Shown: in pieces, positions 1-16,533 of the stretch
Layout: the number at the start of each line of letters is the position of its first letter
How positions within the stretch are numbered: position 1 is the stretch's first letter
Virus record (IMG/VR): IMGVR_UViG_2802429225_000004
Length of the DNA: 44,726 bases
Strand: one strand, 5' to 3'
Origin: a virus
Lineage: Duplodnaviria; Heunggongvirae; Uroviricota; Caudoviricetes
Made by a program: the position numbers and the translations under genes
Notes under the pieces: model-generated
Seen by the model: the letters and a program-made list of their open reading frames with translations, nothing else
Told to the model about the DNA's origin: nothing
Databases searched by the model: none

Positions 1-1131
1 TCAAATAACCAGTTTTTTCCACTCCTTACCGCGTGCGTCGTTGTAAATATCGGTCATTTTTTGATTCGAATGACCCAGCAAAATTTTGGTATCAATTCCC
101 TGTTCTCTGAACAATCTTTCTGATAAAGATCTTTGCTCATGGAAAGAGGGTGGAGTGCCATTAGCACGCCAGTTGTAATCCACAGAATCCCGGGCTTTTT
201 TAAATGCAACTGTTAACGTTGCTGGTTTAACCATCCCGCCGCGCTTACCCATCCCCTTAGCGTGATGATGGTGCAATAACCACGGACTAAGGATGTAATC
301 ACGACAGGATGACACCACGTCACCTAGGGTCAGATTTAATTTGTCGCAACGCAGAGCCAGAGGAATGGCTATCCGGGCTCCTGTTTTTTGCTGTTCGACA
401 TGAAGGTAACCATCCCGGATATCCGAAAACTGCATTTTGCAAATATCCGAAAGACGCTGGCCCGTCATCAGTGCCAGCAGCATGCCGCGCTGTAAAAAGT
501 AACCATCCTTTTCCGCTGCGTTATAAATCATCATCCACTCATCAAAAGTCAGTCGCTGTCTTGATATCCGCACTTGCGGTTTTTTTGCCGATTCAGCCGG
601 GTTAAAGCCTGGCGGGACATCACCCGTTTGTTGAGCCTCCCGGAAAACATCGATCAATACCTTCCTGAAAATTTGTCCCATTCTGTTATGTCCCTTTGCC
701 TTGTATTCTTCCAGCACCGATACCACATCTTTTACGGTTATGGCATCTAGCGGCCTGGCTCCAAAACGTTCATCAAACACCCTGAGAGGAGCCGCTTTTT
801 GTTTCAGCGTGCTGAGCTTGATTTCTCCGTTCTCATATCTTTCCTGTTGAATTTTTCTGTAATTATTCAGAAAAATGGAAACGGTTGATGCGCCGCCGGT
901 ATCACTAATAATTTTCTCCTGCAGACTGAGCATTTGCTCCATTTGTTGTCTGGCAAGACGGCTGTTCGCTTCTGCTGCAATGGTTTCCGCCAGTTTCTGG
1001 TCAATACTGCCGAGTCCATGATTTTTACCTGTGATGGGATGCCTGTAACGCCAGTAAACTTTGTTATTTCTTTTGTCAAAATACGGAGATAAACCCGGAA
1101 CATCGGTTTTATATTTTCGCGGGCGCGCCAT
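1..1131 (-). CDS. int: Phage integrase, tyrosine recombinase (lambda Int family); stop codon is the first codon of the window
   Basis: 376-aa ORF; C-terminal catalytic-domain motifs typical of tyrosine recombinases (HxxR...Y region, LLGHSNQKMTDIY); position at prophage end next to xis. Confidence 0.9.
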   Translation of the reverse strand: MARPRKYKTDVPGLSPYFDKRNNKVYWRYRHPITGKNHGLGSIDQKLAETIAAEANSRLARQQMEQMLSLQEKIISDTGGASTVSIFLNNYRKIQQERYENGEIKLSTLKQKAAPLRVFDERFGARPLDAITVKDVVSVLEEYKAKGHNRMGQIFRKVLIDVFREAQQTGDVPPGFNPAESAKKPQVRISRQRLTFDEWMMIYNAAEKDGYFLQRGMLLALMTGQRLSDICKMQFSDIRDGYLHVEQQKTGARIAIPLALRCDKLNLTLGDVVSSCRDYILSPWLLHHHHAKGMGKRGGMVKPATLTVAFKKARDSVDYNWRANGTPPSFHEQRSLSERLFREQGIDTKILLGHSNQKMTDIYNDARGKEWKKLVI

Positions 1132-1421: not shown

Positions 1422-3896
1422 TTAAAAATCAGCCTGATTCGGGATCAGTTTTTGCCAGATTGCTGAAACGTATTTCGCCTGGTGACGGGCATCATCCAGC
1501 GCATGGTGGCGCACGCCTTCAAATGGAATAACTGTTCTGGCATCGAAGTCGATAGTTTTTCCCAGTTCAACGATTGTACGTACATCGCGATCGTTGTAGT
1601 AACGCCACGGGCAGGGGATGTTCAGGCGTTCGTACGAGGTTCGTAAAATAGTGTTGTCGAAAGTTGCACCATTGCCCCATACCTGAACGAATTTTTCATT
1701 CGAGTACTCATTGATGAATTCCCGAAATTGAATAAGAGCGTCAACCAGTTTTACCTGATCAACTAAAATTGCAGATCTGGCTTCGCTGGACTGAGCAAGC
1801 CACCATTCGATGGTGGAACCATCAGGTACAGCACCCGTGTCCATAGCGTCAACCAGGCTGATAACGATATAAAATGTTGGCCCGATTTCCCCGGTCTGCG
1901 GATCGAAGAACACAGCACCAATAACCACGATGGGGGCATTACTTTTTTTACCCATCGTTTCAAGGTCGATCATCAGGTGGTACCACACTCTGCTGGTGGA
2001 TGTGCTTTTATGATGACCATTCACATTAATTAAGGGATCTGCCGCCTCACCAGTTTCACTATCGCTGGCGTGGTCCTGAGCGCCGCTAGTGTCCCCCTTG
2101 TGTGGATGTTCAGCGCCTTCCATTTCCTCCGGATCATTTTCCTGAACTTCAACCTGATTCTCTTCATCGAATGTTTCCTGATATGTTGCGTTGCCCATCA
2201 CCGCGCCACAATCAGGGCAGTTGCCGCCACCGCTCTGACCGCAGGCGGTGCAGGTTTTTTCTGGTTCTTGTTGCGCTACTGGTTCGGATTGTTTCGTTTC
2301 TGGCTCGTTTTGTAACGCATTTTGGCTGTTTTGTTCCGCTTTCTGGTCGTTCTGTTCCGTTTCTTGCTGGTTCTGGTACACAGAATCGCGGGTTTCAATC
2401 CCCTTCACCCATTTCGGATCATTCGGGTCGCTAATCCCTGCAACAAATTCTCCGCGAGAGGCAGCAAGCAACTGATTGGCGTCAGGCTGGCTGACTGCCT
2501 GCATAATTTTGTTTACTTCGTCAGCGGTAACTTTTACCGGCTCTGGTTGTGCGGTCGTGTCAGATGCACCAGTATTTTGTTGTGAACCTGAGTATGTGCC
2601 GTTTTTGCGGGCAAAATATTCTTCTTTCGTGATTTCAGTAGCCCCGGCAGCCAGCGCCTTATTCAGACCAGAAAGTTTGTTTGCACGACCATATTTTTCG
2701 CCATCCTTATCGGTGAAGAGGAAGTAGAACGGCCCCTCACGCTCTACAGATGGTTCAGTTTCCAGCGCGCTTTCATTTTTTTTGGTATCAGATACTTCAG
2801 TTTCCACTGCATCAGTTTGTGCTGCTGACGGCTGGAGAATATCAGCAGTGTTCTGGTCTGTTTCTTCATCCTCAAACACGCCCTTTGTCGCCAGGTATTC
2901 AGTGATGTATTTGTTCAGTGCCACGGGATCCTTGTGAATGTCGATCGGACGCTCACGGACAAGGCCAAAAATAGTCTGACGGTCATAGCGAATGGCATCA
3001 GGCTGTTTGCGCATTGATGCGGAAATACGCTTCCAGTCTTCGCGATCGCTCTCGATAACTTCATTTTTTGCCCAGCGATGGATGCTGCCGTCAATGTTTC
3101 CGGCATCAATGTCACCAGGCCACAGAGCGTAGGCCAGTTCATCATCCAATGTTTTCCATGTCTGCTTGTATTCGCGACGAATAACTGCAGTGACAGGGGG
3201 GATTTTTTCTGCTGAGTTTTCAGTGTGCTGTCGGTTGACTCTGGTGCGGGCGAGATCAACAACAGACGTGTATTTTCCAGTCTCTTTGCGCTCCGCGTCC
3301 TGCCGTTTTTTCCAGTTACGTAATTCAGCCTGAATTTCGGGCCATTTGGCACCCGGCTTACATTTGTGTTTACCCCATCCGATAGCGAACAGTTTGCGTT
3401 CCGGATACATAGCGTTAATTTCTGGTGTTTTCATCAGTGCTTCAACGATATGCCCGTCGAATGTCGCCACGTCTTCCTGCAGTAACTCCTGTGCGCTAAT
3501 CACCATATCAACGGTGATGTTTTCACATGTACCGAACTTAACCAGGACCGCGTTCTGTACTTCAAGGGACAGCTTGTCAAAATTGACGTTCATCGGATCG
3601 GATTCTGGTTCGACCGGAATAAAGGAAGCGGATTCCTCATCCCAGCGGTTTTCCTGCATATATTCGGTATCCCAGGAGTCGATAGCAGGGCGGGGCATGC
3701 CGGGTTTATCCTCGCAGACAAGAAATTTATAAGCGCAGTCCTGAGCAGCCGGATATTGCTCCAGGAATTGCCAGGTAAATTTGGCACGGGCGCGGCGTTC
3801 GTCACCGGCTTCAATGGCAGTGGCTACAGCAACTGCACCTTCTTCCTTTATTGCCTGTTCGTCCGGAATGGCGGCGCAAATAAAGACTTTACTCAT
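1422..3896 (-). CDS. Large prophage exonuclease with C-terminal DnaQ-like DEDDh 3'-5' exonuclease domain (family often annotated exodeoxyribonuclease VIII in enterobacterial prophages)
   Basis: 824-aa ORF; C-terminal motifs MIDLETMG, WGNGATFDN, HHALDDA match DEDDh exonuclease Exo I/II/III; long acidic Q/E-rich low-complexity middle region with CxxC...CxxC zinc-ribbon-like motif. Confidence 0.75.
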   Translation of the reverse strand: MSKVFICAAIPDEQAIKEEGAVAVATAIEAGDERRARAKFTWQFLEQYPAAQDCAYKFLVCEDKPGMPRPAIDSWDTEYMQENRWDEESASFIPVEPESDPMNVNFDKLSLEVQNAVLVKFGTCENITVDMVISAQELLQEDVATFDGHIVEALMKTPEINAMYPERKLFAIGWGKHKCKPGAKWPEIQAELRNWKKRQDAERKETGKYTSVVDLARTRVNRQHTENSAEKIPPVTAVIRREYKQTWKTLDDELAYALWPGDIDAGNIDGSIHRWAKNEVIESDREDWKRISASMRKQPDAIRYDRQTIFGLVRERPIDIHKDPVALNKYITEYLATKGVFEDEETDQNTADILQPSAAQTDAVETEVSDTKKNESALETEPSVEREGPFYFLFTDKDGEKYGRANKLSGLNKALAAGATEITKEEYFARKNGTYSGSQQNTGASDTTAQPEPVKVTADEVNKIMQAVSQPDANQLLAASRGEFVAGISDPNDPKWVKGIETRDSVYQNQQETEQNDQKAEQNSQNALQNEPETKQSEPVAQQEPEKTCTACGQSGGGNCPDCGAVMGNATYQETFDEENQVEVQENDPEEMEGAEHPHKGDTSGAQDHASDSETGEAADPLINVNGHHKSTSTSRVWYHLMIDLETMGKKSNAPIVVIGAVFFDPQTGEIGPTFYIVISLVDAMDTGAVPDGSTIEWWLAQSSEARSAILVDQVKLVDALIQFREFINEYSNEKFVQVWGNGATFDNTILRTSYERLNIPCPWRYYNDRDVRTIVELGKTIDFDARTVIPFEGVRHHALDDARHQAKYVSAIWQKLIPNQADF

Positions 3897-3976
3897 TTTG
3901 TTTTAACCTCATTACAGATTTAAGGGTGAACAAATCCCTGCCATTGCTGGCATCTAAAAATGAAACCGGATATTAA

Positions 3977-4180
3977 TTACGGTGCTGCTTTAAGTCCTGC
4001 CGGGATTTCGTTATTGTCCATGCGAATAACTTTATCAACCGGATAACAGTTGCCGGGAATTTTCTGTTCCGCTGCGGCAGCCATGCATTCTTTCATTGAG
4101 TCATGTATACCAATAACAAGATCGACTGGTTCGCCTGTATTAAGAAAAACTGTCAGAACGAGTGCAAATGCTGTATTCAT
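3977..4180 (-). CDS. ydfD: YdfD-like small secreted/lysis protein (DUF1482-type)
   Basis: Internal Met start MNTAFALVLTVFL... gives about 67 aa with N-terminal hydrophobic segment; resembles remembered Qin prophage YdfD; directly downstream of dicB-like gene as in the dicB operon. Confidence 0.5.
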   Translation of the reverse strand: MNTAFALVLTVFLNTGEPVDLVIGIHDSMKECMAAAAEQKIPGNCYPVDKVIRMDNNEIPAGLKAAP

Positions 4181-4182
4181 TG

Positions 4183-4365
4183 TCAGCGTCCTTTTTGCAT
4201 CAGGCGTAAACGGGCCAGCATTGAAACAATGCATATTTGATTTAATAGCTCCCGTTCGTGTTTTCTCTTATTAATGGCATCTTCAGTAAATACAGGGTTA
4301 CTGATTCTGACACCAATTTCAAAACAACCTTCAGACGTATTGACGTTTGGTAATAACGTTTCCAT
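4183..4365 (-). CDS. dicB: DicB-like cell-division inhibitor
   Basis: 60-aa product METLLPNVNTSEGCFEIGV...SMLARLRLM closely resembles remembered E. coli DicB; GAGGA RBS upstream; follows DicF-like terminator hairpin. Confidence 0.6.
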   Translation of the reverse strand: METLLPNVNTSEGCFEIGVRISNPVFTEDAINKRKHERELLNQICIVSMLARLRLMQKGR

Positions 4366-4548
4366 TATCGCGTCCTCAACAATGAATTTTGTGATGCGGT
4401 GCCTGGTGCCTCCAGGTGACGTTAACCAGTTAATAATTAACGCCGGATACAGAGAACCCACCCATAAGAACCAATACGGAAGTCAACTGGCCTTTTTAAC
4501 TGTTCCGCGTGCGCTGAGCCGCATTCACCGCATCACAAAATTCACTTT

Positions 4549-4606
4549 AAAAAGGGCGGGTATCACGGGGAAAACAAAACGGATACCCGCCAAAAGGTAA
4601 TCAACA
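4549..4606 (-). ncRNA. dicF: DicF-like sRNA ending in a rho-independent terminator
   Basis: Minus-strand hairpin GGCGGGTATC...GATACCCGCC followed by TTTTT; downstream flank AAAGTGAATTTTGTGATG.GGTGAATGCGGCT.AGCGCACGCGGAACAG matches remembered dicF-dicB intergenic sequence of Qin prophage; 5' end not determinable. Confidence 0.5.
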
Positions 4607-4932
4607 TGGGTTGTTGTGGCGGGGTTGTCACTCAGGCGTATGGTCAACCTGACAACCCGGTGCCACTAATGGGGTAAGGATAACCCCGCCATACTTACCG
4701 CCGCGCCATTTCGCGGATTGCCACAACCGGAAGCGCACGGTCGAATTAAATTTAACGACACCGTACAGACAGAAGAACTTCGCCGTGCGCTTTCGCGTTA
4801 TGCCCTGACTTTTCAGGGATATATCCTTTCAGTAAACTGTCAGTGCCGGATTCTTATCCGTGTCCGGCGCACGACTACACGTGGCAGCGTGTTGGTCTCC
4901 ATTTTTAACCCAGAACCTCAATGGAGGATAAA

Positions 4933-5142
4933 ATGCCAAACAGACCAATACATCCGCTTATTGAAAAACAGATTGAATGTCTGGTTAATCAACTCAGGCA
5001 ATCAGGGTTATTAAAAAACCATTCAGAGTTAAGGCTCACGAAATCAGCATTTGACGATAAATTAAACAATGTGCTTTATAATGGCATCATTGATTACAAT
5101 CGTGGTGTTGGTCGTCGTGGCCCTGCTGGCACCGCCCTGTAA
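4933..5142 (+). CDS. Hypothetical 69-aa protein, antisense-oriented to the surrounding minus-strand operon
   Basis: ATG preceded by GGAGGA; stop abuts the convergent stop of the 212-aa minus-strand gene; no recognisable domain. Confidence 0.3.
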   Translation: MPNRPIHPLIEKQIECLVNQLRQSGLLKNHSELRLTKSAFDDKLNNVLYNGIIDYNRGVGRRGPAGTAL

Positions 5143-5781
5143 TTACCAGTCAATCCAGAGCGGATAGTGTTCAGCGTAAATATAGCTGTATACATCAAGG
5201 TTGTATTTGTGGTCTGCTTTTAACAGGTCACAAATACATGTTGCTGCTTCCAGGGCTGAAGCTCTGTTACTGAACATCCACGTCGCAACATTCCAGCTAT
5301 TCTCTGTATCCCATTCTTTCGCAAGAGTTGACACTCTGAAGGATCCGTTGGCGTTGCCATCAAATACTTCTGTTTCCAGGTTCTTAAGCAATGCCTGATG
5401 AACTTTTGTCAGGTATTCAGCCGGAATCTTGCCACGGATTCTGATGAGATTGTCATAAACAAACATATTTCCCGCGTATGGCGATTTTTCTTTCTTGTTT
5501 TTTAAACCAGCATCATGAGCAAACTGATCAATTTCTTCTTTCATTGGTTTCGTATTGATGTTTTGCGCTGTCGTTTCTGCAATTTTCTTTGCCACACTCT
5601 CTGAGTCGTGTTTATTTACAGACGAACAGAAATACAATCCGGTAAACGCATCGCGCACATTACGAGCCATATTATCAATGTCTTTCTTCGTTGCAGATTC
5701 TAATTCAACTTCGGACAGACGTTGACAAAGTGCATGCGCTGCAATCACCTTGATTTCTTTTGGTAACTCTTTAAATTCCAT
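5143..5781 (-). CDS. Hypothetical 212-aa protein in the ydfC slot of the dicB-type operon
   Basis: Long ORF, AT-rich relative to neighbours, tightly packed behind YdfB-like ORF; no motif recognised by eye. Confidence 0.6.
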   Translation of the reverse strand: MEFKELPKEIKVIAAHALCQRLSEVELESATKKDIDNMARNVRDAFTGLYFCSSVNKHDSESVAKKIAETTAQNINTKPMKEEIDQFAHDAGLKNKKEKSPYAGNMFVYDNLIRIRGKIPAEYLTKVHQALLKNLETEVFDGNANGSFRVSTLAKEWDTENSWNVATWMFSNRASALEAATCICDLLKADHKYNLDVYSYIYAEHYPLWIDW

Positions 5782-5792
5782 CTATAACCCCG

Positions 5793-5921
5793 TTAGTCGA
5801 TAGATTTTGCCGAACTGTAAAGCGCCTGTTTAAACTCACTGAAGCTGAGAGCTTCTTCGCCTTCGGCAAGGCCTTCGAAGTATTCTTCGTAAGCCTTTTC
5901 CATGATTGTGTCGAAATCCAT
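5793..5921 (-). CDS. ydfB: YdfB-like 42-aa acidic protein
   Basis: 42-codon ORF MDFDTIMEKAYEEYFEGLAEGEE... placed 1 nt after YdfA-like stop; below the 60-aa ORF-track cutoff, translated manually. Confidence 0.4.
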   Translation of the reverse strand: MDFDTIMEKAYEEYFEGLAEGEEALSFSEFKQALYSSAKSID

Positions 5922-5922
5922 A

Positions 5923-6078
5923 TCACTCACCTGAGTTTCTTTCCAGCCAGCGACGGGCACCATTTTCGGTTTTAAACATTTTGCTTTTGGTATACGTCAT
6001 CGCGGTGAACGTGCCGTCCTGGTTGGGAAACACGCCGTACACCAGAGATTCGTTGTTGCCAAGATCGATAGTATCCAT
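5923..6078 (-). CDS. ydfA: YdfA-like small protein (DUF1391-type)
   Basis: Internal Met start MDTIDLGNNESLVYGVFPNQDGTF... (51 aa) with GAGG RBS; first gene after the palindromic operator/promoter. Confidence 0.5.
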   Translation of the reverse strand: MDTIDLGNNESLVYGVFPNQDGTFTAMTYTKSKMFKTENGARRWLERNSGE

Positions 6079-6260
6079 GTTGACCTCATTTCCCCTTAAC
6101 GCCGGGGTAGCGGAACAAAAACCTGCTGCATAGTTAAAGTTGAACCCTGCCGTCATGTTCTTACGCCTCGGGCTGGCTACTTAACCCCTGACCACTGCCT
6201 GGTAACTCGAAGTATTGCCCTGCATTCTGTGGGGCGGGGTGGGTTGGTAAAAATAATCTA

Positions 6261-6297
6261 CAATTAAAAACTGTTTTGTGTCAACAGTTTTTAATTG
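6261..6297. promoter_or_regulatory. Perfect 15-bp inverted repeat operator (CAATTAAAAACTGTT-N7-AACAGTTTTTAATTG) in the promoter region of the dicB-type operon
   Basis: Read directly from sequence; related half-sites AAAACTGT/ACAGTTTT recur in the repressor/cro divergent region. Confidence 0.5.
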
Positions 6298-6304
6298 TTG
6301 TCTT

Positions 6305-6334
6305 AGACAAAAAAACTCCCTCGAATGAGGGAGT
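6305..6334 (-). terminator. Rho-independent terminator ending the repressor-antitoxin-toxin operon
   Basis: Hairpin ACTCCCTC-GAAT-GAGGGAGT followed on the minus strand by T-tract; 17 nt after the ParE-like stop. Confidence 0.55.
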
Positions 6335-6350
6335 ATGGAAATTGTTCGGC

Positions 6351-6638
6351 TCAGATAGAGAAGGGAAATTGTCGACGGGCATGCACAATATTCGCAATTT
6401 CAATGCTTGAAGTTGCTACTCGGTACAACACGATATAATTAGGGTGAACCACAAGTTCCCGCAAACCGGATACTCGATCACTTAGCGGATATAGATATGG
6501 GTGCTCAGAGAGGGTTAAAACAGACGTTTCAATACGTATTTTTAGTCTGCGTGCTGCAGGAATGTTTTCCTTAGCAATATAGGTTACGACCTGACGCAAA
6601 TCATCGCGAGCAGATGGTAGCCATAAAATGGGTAACAT
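6351..6638 (-). CDS. RelE/ParE-family toxin (ParE2-like)
   Basis: 95-aa ORF with conserved RelE/ParE core pattern (...YIVLYRV...IEIANIVHARR); start overlaps stop of upstream small antitoxin ORF. Confidence 0.6.
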   Translation of the reverse strand: MLPILWLPSARDDLRQVVTYIAKENIPAARRLKIRIETSVLTLSEHPYLYPLSDRVSGLRELVVHPNYIVLYRVATSSIEIANIVHARRQFPFSI

Positions 6639-6829
6639 TACTCGCTCCTGTTAGTTGCAGCAATTTGAGCAATAAGATTTTCCATTTCAGCCATTACCTC
6701 GTCATGTGGAATTGCGGGGCGAGGGTCTGCAAGGCTTAACGTCACTTTAGCGCGCAACCATTCGTTGTAACTGTTTTCTTGTTCGGTAGTTTCGAATTCT
6801 GAAACTATCGGAGAAAGGGCTGTACTCAT
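6638..6829 (-). CDS. Small antitoxin (PaaA2-like) paired with ParE-family toxin
   Basis: 63-aa acidic ORF directly upstream of and overlapping the toxin gene; size and position match the PaaR2-PaaA2-ParE2 arrangement of O157 prophages. Confidence 0.5.
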   Translation of the reverse strand: MSTALSPIVSEFETTEQENSYNEWLRAKVTLSLADPRPAIPHDEVMAEMENLIAQIAATNRSE

Positions 6830-6856: not shown

Positions 6857-7258
6857 TCACGCCCGGCGGCTTTTTTGTGCCGCCAACCATCGGGCAATAG
6901 TTTCTTCCATTGATTTTTTCTTGTCTTTGATTTCTTGAAGCATTTTTTCTTGGTCTTCCTCTGGAAACGCACTAAAAGCTTGGAGCAGTTCGCGTTGGCG
7001 AGGACCAATTTTCATTGTGTCAGGGGTGAAAATTTGCTCCCCCTCATCAGGAGGCAATAAAAACCAATGCAATGGATGCCCTGTAACCTCAACCAGTTTA
7101 TCCAAACTTGAGGCTTTAGGCGTAGCCTTACCGCTGACCCATTGTTGAACTGTTTGTTGTGTCACACCAATTCTACGGGCAAGTTCAGCCTGGCTCCATC
7201 CAGTTTCCTGAAGAAGCTTGCTGATTCTGTACATAGATACTTCTAGGGCGTTCATCAT
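6857..7258 (-). CDS. HTH_XRE repressor (cI/DicA/PaaR2-like), probable prophage immunity repressor
   Basis: 133-aa ORF with HTH ISKLLQETGWSQAELARRIGVTQQTVQQW; divergent from cro-like gene; palindromic operators nearby. Confidence 0.75.
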   Translation of the reverse strand: MMNALEVSMYRISKLLQETGWSQAELARRIGVTQQTVQQWVSGKATPKASSLDKLVEVTGHPLHWFLLPPDEGEQIFTPDTMKIGPRQRELLQAFSAFPEEDQEKMLQEIKDKKKSMEETIARWLAAQKSRRA

Positions 7259-11665: not shown

Positions 11666-11949
11666 GATGGCTTTTGTGGACAAAGACGGCATCGAAGTAG
11701 AGAGCTCAACTCACTGGATGCCGCTACCGGAACCACCGCAGGAGGTGAATCAATGACCTGGCCTGAGGCATTCACCACGGTAGGAATTGCACTGGCGGTG
11801 GCGCTGGTGGTGTATTCGATTTGCCGCTGGGGATAAAAACGATTTGCGGGAAAAGGATAGTTAAGTAGAATGGCTGCGGGTGCTTGAGGCTATCTGTCTC
11901 AGGCATGAACACCAACGGCAGATAGAGAAAAGCCCCAGTTAACATTACG

Positions 11950-12020
11950 CGTCCTGCAAGACGCTTAACATTAATCTGAGGCCATATCTATGACTTGCAC
12001 ACGTAGGTTAGCCTCTTACG
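11950..12020 (-). ncRNA. Putative Sok-type antisense RNA region of the hok locus
   Basis: Inferred from the canonical hok/mok/sok organisation only; boundaries not resolvable from sequence. Confidence 0.25.
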
Positions 12021-12046
12021 TGCCGAAAGGCAAGGAGAAGCAGGCT

Positions 12047-12202
12047 ATGAAGCAGCAAAAGGCGATGTTAATCGCCCTGATCGTCATCTGTTTAACCGTC
12101 ATAGTGACGGCACTGGTAACGAGGAAAGACCTCTGCGAGGTACGAATCCGAACCGGCCAGACGGAGGTCGCTGTCTTCACAGCTTACGAACCTGAGGAGT
12201 AA
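12047..12202 (+). CDS. hok: Hok-family type I toxin (HokD/RelF-like); overlapping mok frame begins at 11990
   Basis: 51-aa product MKQQKAMLIALIVICLTVIVTALVTRKDLCEVRIRTGQTEVAVFTAYEPEE is a hallmark Hok sequence; upstream overlapping reading frame as in mok. Confidence 0.85.
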   Translation: MKQQKAMLIALIVICLTVIVTALVTRKDLCEVRIRTGQTEVAVFTAYEPEE

Positions 12203-16379: not shown

Positions 16380-16455
<76 letters not shown>

Positions 16456-16458
16456 TAT

Positions 16459-16533
<75 letters not shown>

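Follow-up and report, generated by a model that had tools for sequence, protein, structure and literature searches.

DicF, a textbook example of a prophage small RNA (sRNA), links derepression of the phage to division and metabolism of the host cell. Its 5' part pairs with the xylR and pykA mRNAs, and its loop and 3' half pair with the ribosome-binding region of ftsZ (PMC5069750). In Escherichia coli K-12 the dicBF operon of the Qin prophage also encodes DicB, which blocks formation of the FtsZ ring and additionally protects against some phages (PMC6832061), and YdfD, which causes division-dependent lysis through inhibition of IspG and needs intact termini to do so (PMC8835842). Another annotated prophage sRNA, KilS (b4833) of the Rac prophage, is located 5' of the division inhibitor kilR; it has been verified by northern blotting and was recovered with yncL by Hfq RIL-seq, i.e. 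RNA interaction by ligation and sequencing (PMC8175672). Here we consider a locus of this type at positions 3977-6156 of a 44,726-nucleotide virus sequence (IMG/VR record IMGVR_UViG_2802429225_000004; the window, by which we mean the whole of the stretch analysed), for which an earlier note had proposed a DicF-like sRNA with its terminator hairpin, together with a DicB-like division inhibitor and a YdfD-like lysis protein downstream of YdfA/YdfB-like open reading frames (ORFs). Taken as a whole this module is real but ordinary; the hairpin in the dicF position, however, is to judge from its sequence not DicF and is a distinct allele, here termed allele C, of a polymorphic slot.

Allele C (4549-4605, minus strand) is an intrinsic terminator and putative sRNA that occupies the exact dicF position, with conserved flanks on both sides, in an alignment with K-12 Qin, phage Tritos (which carries an annotated DicF) and E. 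coli EC21Z-048. Like DicF, it lies between the gene in the ydfC slot and dicB and forms a Rho-independent terminator with a U-tract. It comprises a short, pyrimidine-rich 5' tail (UUGAUUACCUUUU), a hairpin (GGCGGGUAUC-CGUUUUGUUUUCCCCGU-GAUACCCGCC, 4591-4555) in which a G+C-rich stem of 10 base pairs (bp; 4591-4582/4564-4555) encloses a loop of 17 nucleotides (nt), and then C-U5-AAAG, with the U5 tract at 4553-4549; the hairpin folds at -19.7 kcal/mol (z = -5.1). The slot, its flanks, the stem base GGCGG/CCGCC and the U5AAAG tail are all common to allele C and DicF. Nevertheless, the Rfam DicF model (RF00039, gathering score 48 bits) gave no match over 3800-6400, either at the gathering score or at E ≤ 10, using a search in which the positive controls K-12 dicF and allele E scored 76.7 and 61.1 bits, respectively. 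Nine nucleotides (CTGGTGACG) of the K-12 DicF 5' seed are deleted in allele C and the tail is different (alignment A1), and the K-12 5' seed for xylR and pykA, UUUCUGGUGACG, is not present in the element. Its loop and 3' half likewise differ from those of K-12 DicF, and the residues altered in the variants DicF9 and DicF23, which fall in the 3' half, are not conserved. In short, allele C fails each of the sequence-based tests for DicF. A search of the window for complements of the loop returned only the element itself and one site with three mismatches. The missing RefSeq annotation over allele C was considered as a possible Rfam failure, an explanation rejected because DicF of the K-12 type is also listed as 'none' there.

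Approximately 150 IMG/VR loci retrieved via two conserved anchors contain at least eight hairpin classes at this slot, alike in their stem base (GGCGG...CCGCC), in having a U-tract and in the flank AAAGTGAATTTTGTGATG but with varying loops and 5' tails. Among 5426 complete E. coli genomes the K-12 DicF type is present in 3954, allele B in 1430, allele C in 153 (at ≥90% identity) and allele D in 100. Carriers of allele C include E. coli ETEC4090 (NZ_CP122620.1) and OkiPb01701 (NZ_AP042598.1). Allele B is KilS, which in K-12 Rac (L188, 7406-7503, minus strand) fills the slot held in the window by 4549-4605; it too lies upstream of a division inhibitor (kilR), and the base of its terminator and the leader that follows match those of the window. 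Qin DicF, Rac KilS, allele D and the window hairpin can be aligned in register (alignment A5), with GGCGG.ATC.GTTTT, CCGCCCTTTTTAAAGTGAATTTTGTGATG.GGTGAATGCGGCT, the terminator tail and the leader down to the dicB/kilR start codon as their common parts. Allele C is nonetheless not KilS in either its hairpin or its 5' part, since the KilS loop (UUUUUUUCUUGAAGUUCGG) and 5' portion are unlike those of allele C, and only the stem base and flanks are held in common. In both pairwise comparisons the slot is the least conserved segment, identity between the window and K-12 being 91% in the structured RNA domain that lies upstream, 61% in the slot, 87% in the dicB leader and 92% in dicB, with corresponding values of 98%, 80%, 99% and 93% for the comparison with allele D. 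As DicF and KilS have both been verified, the slot has at least two alleles that are genuine sRNAs, and their targets differ. The publication that characterised KilS (PMC8175672) makes no mention of DicF and does not draw the link between DicF, KilS and the other alleles, of which an earlier description is possible. In some related phage contigs (L119, 4593-4781; L166, 1171-1359) isrK and C4 antisense RNA, both matched by Rfam above the gathering score, take the place of dicB after the same slot and leader.

Because KilS and DicF are verified, and because the slot is the least conserved segment, the best reading of the slot hairpin, and one to which we give slightly better than even odds, is that allele C is an uncharacterised sibling sRNA/terminator of DicF and KilS. 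By analogy with these, the hairpin would terminate some transcripts and would be released by RNase III/RNase E as an Hfq-type RNA of ~45-55 nt. It might instead be an intrinsic terminator or attenuator and nothing else, the released RNA being an inert by-product and the differences between alleles reflecting freedom to vary. Such an account fits the observation that what the alleles have in common is limited to the stem base, U-tract and flanks, and that allele C, with a very stable stem that leaves the loop as its sole exposed part, has no convincing target. We nevertheless consider it rather unlikely, given that the occupants of the same slot in Qin and Rac are verified Hfq-associated regulators (PMC5069750; PMC8175672) and that the slot differs far more than its flanks do, a pattern for which exchange of the variable part, or selection acting on it, is a better explanation than drift.

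Its location in the same genomic slot beside dicB might also suggest that allele C is a functional DicF orthologue, repressing ftsZ by weaker or different pairing, e.g. between its loop UUUUCCCC and the ftsZ Shine-Dalgarno region CGGAGAGAAAC. The earlier note had recommended that pairing of the variant with ftsZ mRNA be predicted. In windowed duplex calculations corrected for accessibility, K-12 DicF paired with positions -28 to -7 of ftsZ with a hybrid energy of -22.7 kcal/mol (net -9.1 kcal/mol), placing ftsZ fourth of 35 leaders; the best interaction of allele C lay at -12 to -1 of the ftsZ leader, with a hybrid energy of just -7.5 kcal/mol (net -3.1 kcal/mol) and rank 17 of 35. On cofolding with the ftsZ leader K-12 DicF opened to form 33 intermolecular bp (ΔΔG -9.4 kcal/mol), whereas the hairpin of allele C stayed closed and made contact only through its U-tail (6 bp, ΔΔG -2.5 kcal/mol). 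The two approaches agree, the K-12 positive control behaves as published, and on these computational grounds allele C has no ftsZ-complementary 3' region of the DicF kind. (Plain RNAduplex calculations with whole sRNAs against a 140-nt ftsZ leader were dropped, as they returned long, loop-rich duplexes no better than shuffled sequences even for K-12 DicF.) Taken with the negative Rfam search and the lack of conservation at the DicF9/DicF23 residues, such values make a functional orthologue improbable. The label 'DicF' thus fails, because the element goes unmatched by the Rfam DicF model, lacks the 5' seed and is not predicted to pair with ftsZ as DicF does; of the element first described as a DicF-like sRNA with its terminator hairpin, the hairpin and its position in the slot stand and the DicF identity does not. 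The accompanying remark that the hairpin is diverged from the K-12 copy is borne out (identity is 61% within the slot and 87-92% in the segments on either side), and the guess that it may be a variant with altered target pairing gains support from the computations, in the form of an allele with another loop and 5' tail. Without either of the DicF seed regions, allele C would not be expected to act as a repressor of ftsZ, xylR or pykA.

The gene cluster is real, with clear family-model scores and identities to K-12, and the limits originally assigned to it are right. The ydfD-like ORF has its stop at 3977, and at 6156 begins a 77-residue ORF that holds the 51-residue YdfA homologue (ATG at 6078). 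The latter (5923-6078; DUF1391) matches Pfam PF07151 at 95.5 bits (E 1.4e-27) and is identical to K-12 YdfA at 50 of 51 positions; the adjacent ydfB homologue (5793-5921) encodes 42 residues, 39 of them identical to K-12 YdfB, and belongs to phrog_2061. The dicB homologue (4183-4365) encodes a cell-division inhibitor of 60 residues, 54 identical to K-12, which scores 127.4 bits (E 1.6e-37) against Pfam PF05358 (cut-off 27 bits) and 126.5 bits against NCBIfam NF049927 (CellDivInhibDicB; cut-off 100). Beginning 2 nt past the dicB stop, the ydfD homologue (3977-4180) encodes a putative lysis protein of 67 residues (DUF1482) that scores 81 bits (E 5.9e-23) against Pfam PF07358 (cut-off 25 bits); 46 of 63 residues are identical to K-12, both cysteines are kept, and there are 17 substitutions and four additional C-terminal residues. 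DicB, YdfD and YdfA were thus each matched by a family model or exceeded its cut-off, confirming the DicB-like inhibitor and YdfD-like lysis protein downstream of YdfA/YdfB-like ORFs, and in the formal comparison with Qin dicF, dicB and ydfD, which the earlier note had set as its test, dicB and ydfD aligned and dicF was not matched by RF00039. From its 90% identity to the K-12 protein, the window DicB would be expected to inhibit FtsZ ring formation in a MinC/ZipA-dependent manner. More generally, given how closely DicB and YdfD resemble their K-12 homologues, division inhibition and lysis are the activities expected upon derepression; transfer of the K-12 activity is probably safer for DicB than for YdfD, and changes at the C-terminus affect lysis by K-12 YdfD (PMC8835842). 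That the whole module is a decaying, non-functional remnant, as in cryptic Qin, is very improbable, for although a defective prophage is the best-known source of the operon and YdfD is the most diverged of the proteins, all ORFs are intact, the window has its integrase, excisionase, full-length exonuclease (824 residues) and replication genes, the structural region is complete, and a near-identical copy exists in another IMG/VR contig (UViG_2802429219_000011, 99.98% identity across 14.9 kb).

All elements of the operon lie on the minus strand, except for a convergent 69-residue ORF on the plus strand, and run from high to low coordinates in the order promoter, ydfA, ydfB, a 212-residue ORF, non-coding RNA, hairpin with U-tract, leader, dicB and ydfD. 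The region is colinear with K-12 Qin, E. coli prophages and phage Tritos, which supports the operon architecture, and this architecture is common, with 450 E. coli records from the complete genomes spanning at least 80% of the region. In comparison with Qin, the genes keep their order and strand, identity is 73-98% for YdfA, YdfB, DicB and YdfD, and the ydfC-dicF spacer, the dicB leader and the RNase III hairpins are all conserved; in contrast, ydfC is exchanged for the 212-residue ORF and the convergent 69-residue ORF, the exonuclease gene is intact rather than a ydfE pseudogene, and the repressor is of another immunity type, with a ParE/PaaA2 pair beside its gene. The 212-residue ORF, the 69-residue ORF and a conserved, structured non-coding RNA of ~320 nt were absent from the earlier note, whose stated limits enclose all three.

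A consensus scan identified a promoter resembling PL/dicBp at 6255-6284 (minus strand), with a -35 element TTGACA at 6284, an 18-nt spacer and a -10 element TAGATT ending at 6255; it is embedded in a putative operator at 6260-6298, inverted repeat I2, whose two 16-bp arms form a perfect (100% complementary) palindrome. Their position 5' of ydfA, as in Qin, suggests that they function as promoter and operator. A CI/HTH_3 repressor gene, the product of which is ~30% identical to DicA, is located at 6857-7258, and this repressor could plausibly silence the operon. Its gene is separated from the PL-like promoter by a pair encoding a ParE toxin (95 residues) and a PaaA2-type antitoxin (63 residues; 6351-6829, minus strand), and the ParE gene has a clean terminator at 6334-6315, 5' of the promoter. 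At the equivalent position lambda carries rexAB. Transcription from the repressor-controlled promoter at ~6284-6255 would proceed through ydfA, ydfB and the 212-residue ORF, cross the ~320 nt of structured non-coding RNA and reach the intrinsic terminator hairpin in the DicF slot; past the hairpin it would continue through the dicB leader into dicB, ydfD and the exonuclease, excisionase (xis) and integrase (int) genes.

We read the region as homologous to the Qin dicBF operon and as forming the early-left (PL) operon of a lambdoid prophage of Escherichia, and put the probability of this reading as a whole, including the assignments made above for the slot and for DicB and YdfD, at roughly 0.72. 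Several points count against it. The YdfD of the window differs from the K-12 protein by 17 substitutions and a four-residue C-terminal extension, and the repressor shares just ~30% identity with DicA. That allele C is a stable RNA, where its 5' end lies and that it binds Hfq are all matters that we infer by analogy. Its 5' tail is short and its stem is more stable than that of K-12 DicF, leaving the 17-nt loop as the only obvious seed. The background for target ranking comprised just 35 leaders from one 40-kb stretch of K-12, evaluated with a home-made accessibility model, and some weak regulation of ftsZ through pairing of the loop with the Shine-Dalgarno region is possible at the hybrid energy calculated.

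Upstream of the slot, about 320 nt at 4905-4604 contain no credible ORF and are as conserved as the genes; a 360-nt fold of this upstream RNA has an energy of -133.7 kcal/mol (z = -3.9). The 5' part of the structured leader (4736-4905, minus strand), defined by K-12 alignment and folding, includes several hairpins, among them the long hairpin P0 (4795-4728, with arms 4795-4783 and 4740-4728; inverted repeat I11). In K-12 the 5' end of a ~190-nt DicF precursor is made by RNase III (PMC10448788), and when placed on the window via alignment A2 the corresponding cut would map to ~4733, in the 3' strand of P0. There follows a 132-nt domain (4604-4735, minus strand) for which the RNAalifold consensus of 81 distinct sequences contains four helices, namely P1 (GUUGUGGC/GCCACAAC), P2 (CCGCG/CGCGG), P3 (GGGG/CCCC) and P4 (GGGUUGUCA/UGACAACCC plus AGG/CCU). 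A covariance model that we built for this domain (R1) scores 155.6 bits in the window and 122-163 bits in all loci of the four-helix type, including those of E. albertii, Trabulsiella and Erwinia tracheiphila, with the Trabulsiella and Erwinia copies at 122-127 bits. The domain is present in 4283 of the complete E. coli genomes, was not found by the model in loci of the Rac (KilS) type, and has no Rfam match at E ≤ 10.

Hairpin P3 is found with at least eight different stems, each complementary (i.e. compensated); P1 shows a G.U/G-C exchange and one C-G to U-A exchange. Formal covariation on a MAFFT alignment is weak, with double changes at two pairs, owing to the excessive similarity of the sequences and to misalignment of P3. 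The four-helix structure is accordingly supported, mainly by the P3 stem variants, but is not proven. A change in P4 (GGGTCGTCA/TGACAGCCC) was considered as compensatory covariation and rejected, as in register it gives U.G and a C.A mismatch; a pseudoknot between the P3 loop UCCUU and a downstream GAGGA was also rejected, being conserved neither in the window nor in other variants. In three loci (L011, 1628-1759; L042, 5217-5348; L182, 2643-2774) the 3' strand of P0 and the 5' strand of P1 are missing, apparently through deletion between two CGCGAAA repeats, and the domain consequently cannot close. In K-12 the domain constitutes the 5' part of the ~190-nt DicF species; it is not known to have been discussed in any other context, although a prior description is possible. 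It may have a function of its own, for example in guiding processing or in modulating terminator read-through into dicB-ydfD-exo-xis-int.

On the other side of the slot, the 183-nt dicB leader (4366-4548, minus strand) is 87% identical to K-12 and 99% identical to EC21Z-048. It is closed by a perfect 19-bp duplex (4544-4526 with 4401-4383; inverted repeat I1, 100% complementary) that begins directly after the terminator, ends 12 nt 5' of the dicB Shine-Dalgarno sequence and encloses a 124-nt interior; two of its G-C pairs are G.U in the K-12 counterpart. K-12 also produces a 72-nt DicF species via an RNase III cut (PMC5069750), and the 19-bp duplex is probably the RNase III site that gives this species. 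Part of the leader (4388-4542, minus strand) resembles the Rfam family STnc100 (RF02076), with which it shares the outer helix and the CCUGGAGGCACCAGG hairpin, but the match (33.5 bits, E 6.1e-05, model positions 21-154 of 206) is below the gathering score of 47 bits and does not place the leader in that family. STnc100/PasD prophage sRNAs are, moreover, described near the Q/late region and not upstream of dicB (bioRxiv 10.64898/2026.05.13.724894).

The ydfC position is occupied by the 212-residue ORF (5143-5781, minus strand), a 'Ybl81'-like protein (phrog_2151) of unknown function in which no similarity to YdfC was found. Its 'Ybl81' homologues are nearly restricted to Escherichia and are just 61-88% identical to the query, making the protein far more variable between strains than its neighbours YdfA and YdfB; structure prediction and a fold search yielded nothing usable. 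Convergent with it is the 69-residue ORF (4933-5142, plus strand), also of unknown function, which matches phrog_4274 at 145.5 bits over residues 5-73 of a 73-residue form of the ORF and is annotated as a 69-residue hypothetical protein in E. coli EC21Z-048. Among the loci compared, the gene upstream in the ydfC slot varies widely, and often an antisense ORF begins at the edge of the structured RNA. ARAGORN found no tRNA-like genes in 3900-6400.

The window as a whole represents an Escherichia-type temperate phage or prophage and is about 92-94% identical to the best-matching prophages in the complete E. coli genomes. Its left end carries the integrase (1-1131, minus strand) and, beside it, the excisionase (minus strand). 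The exonuclease gene 3' of ydfD (1422-3896, minus strand) encodes 824 residues with an Rv2179c-like 3'-5' exoribonuclease (DEDDh) domain at the C-terminus (Pfam, 230.8 bits), and is the intact counterpart at the position of the K-12 ydfE pseudogene. Beyond the dicB region the window contains the immunity region, replication genes, a hok/sok-type locus (11878-12052, plus strand; Rfam sok antitoxin, 109.5 bits, gathering score 59), two adjacent phage-borne tRNA genes (16380-16452 and 16459-16530, plus strand; Rfam tRNA, 73.8 and 64.5 bits) and a structural region with a tail sheath.

As a tentative extension, and one that may well prove wrong, we propose that the DicF position is a polymorphic sRNA cassette in which a fixed scaffold carries interchangeable loops and 5' tails, that allele C is a third regulator with host targets of its own, and that the upstream four-helix domain contributes a possible separate function. 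The scaffold would consist of the upstream processing hairpins, the stem base with its U-tract and the dicB/kilR leader, and the parts that differ among alleles, i.e. the loop and 5' tail, would be those that pair with targets.

For the phage studied here, the consequence is that DicB, rather than an RNA antisense to ftsZ, is the sole predicted division inhibitor in the window, and that the name 'DicF' should not be transferred to the element upstream of its gene. For the family, searches with Rfam or with BLAST using K-12 dicF would overlook the non-DicF alleles entirely; and if the slot does hold several seeds, prophages that are alike at the level of their genes would rewire different host mRNAs.

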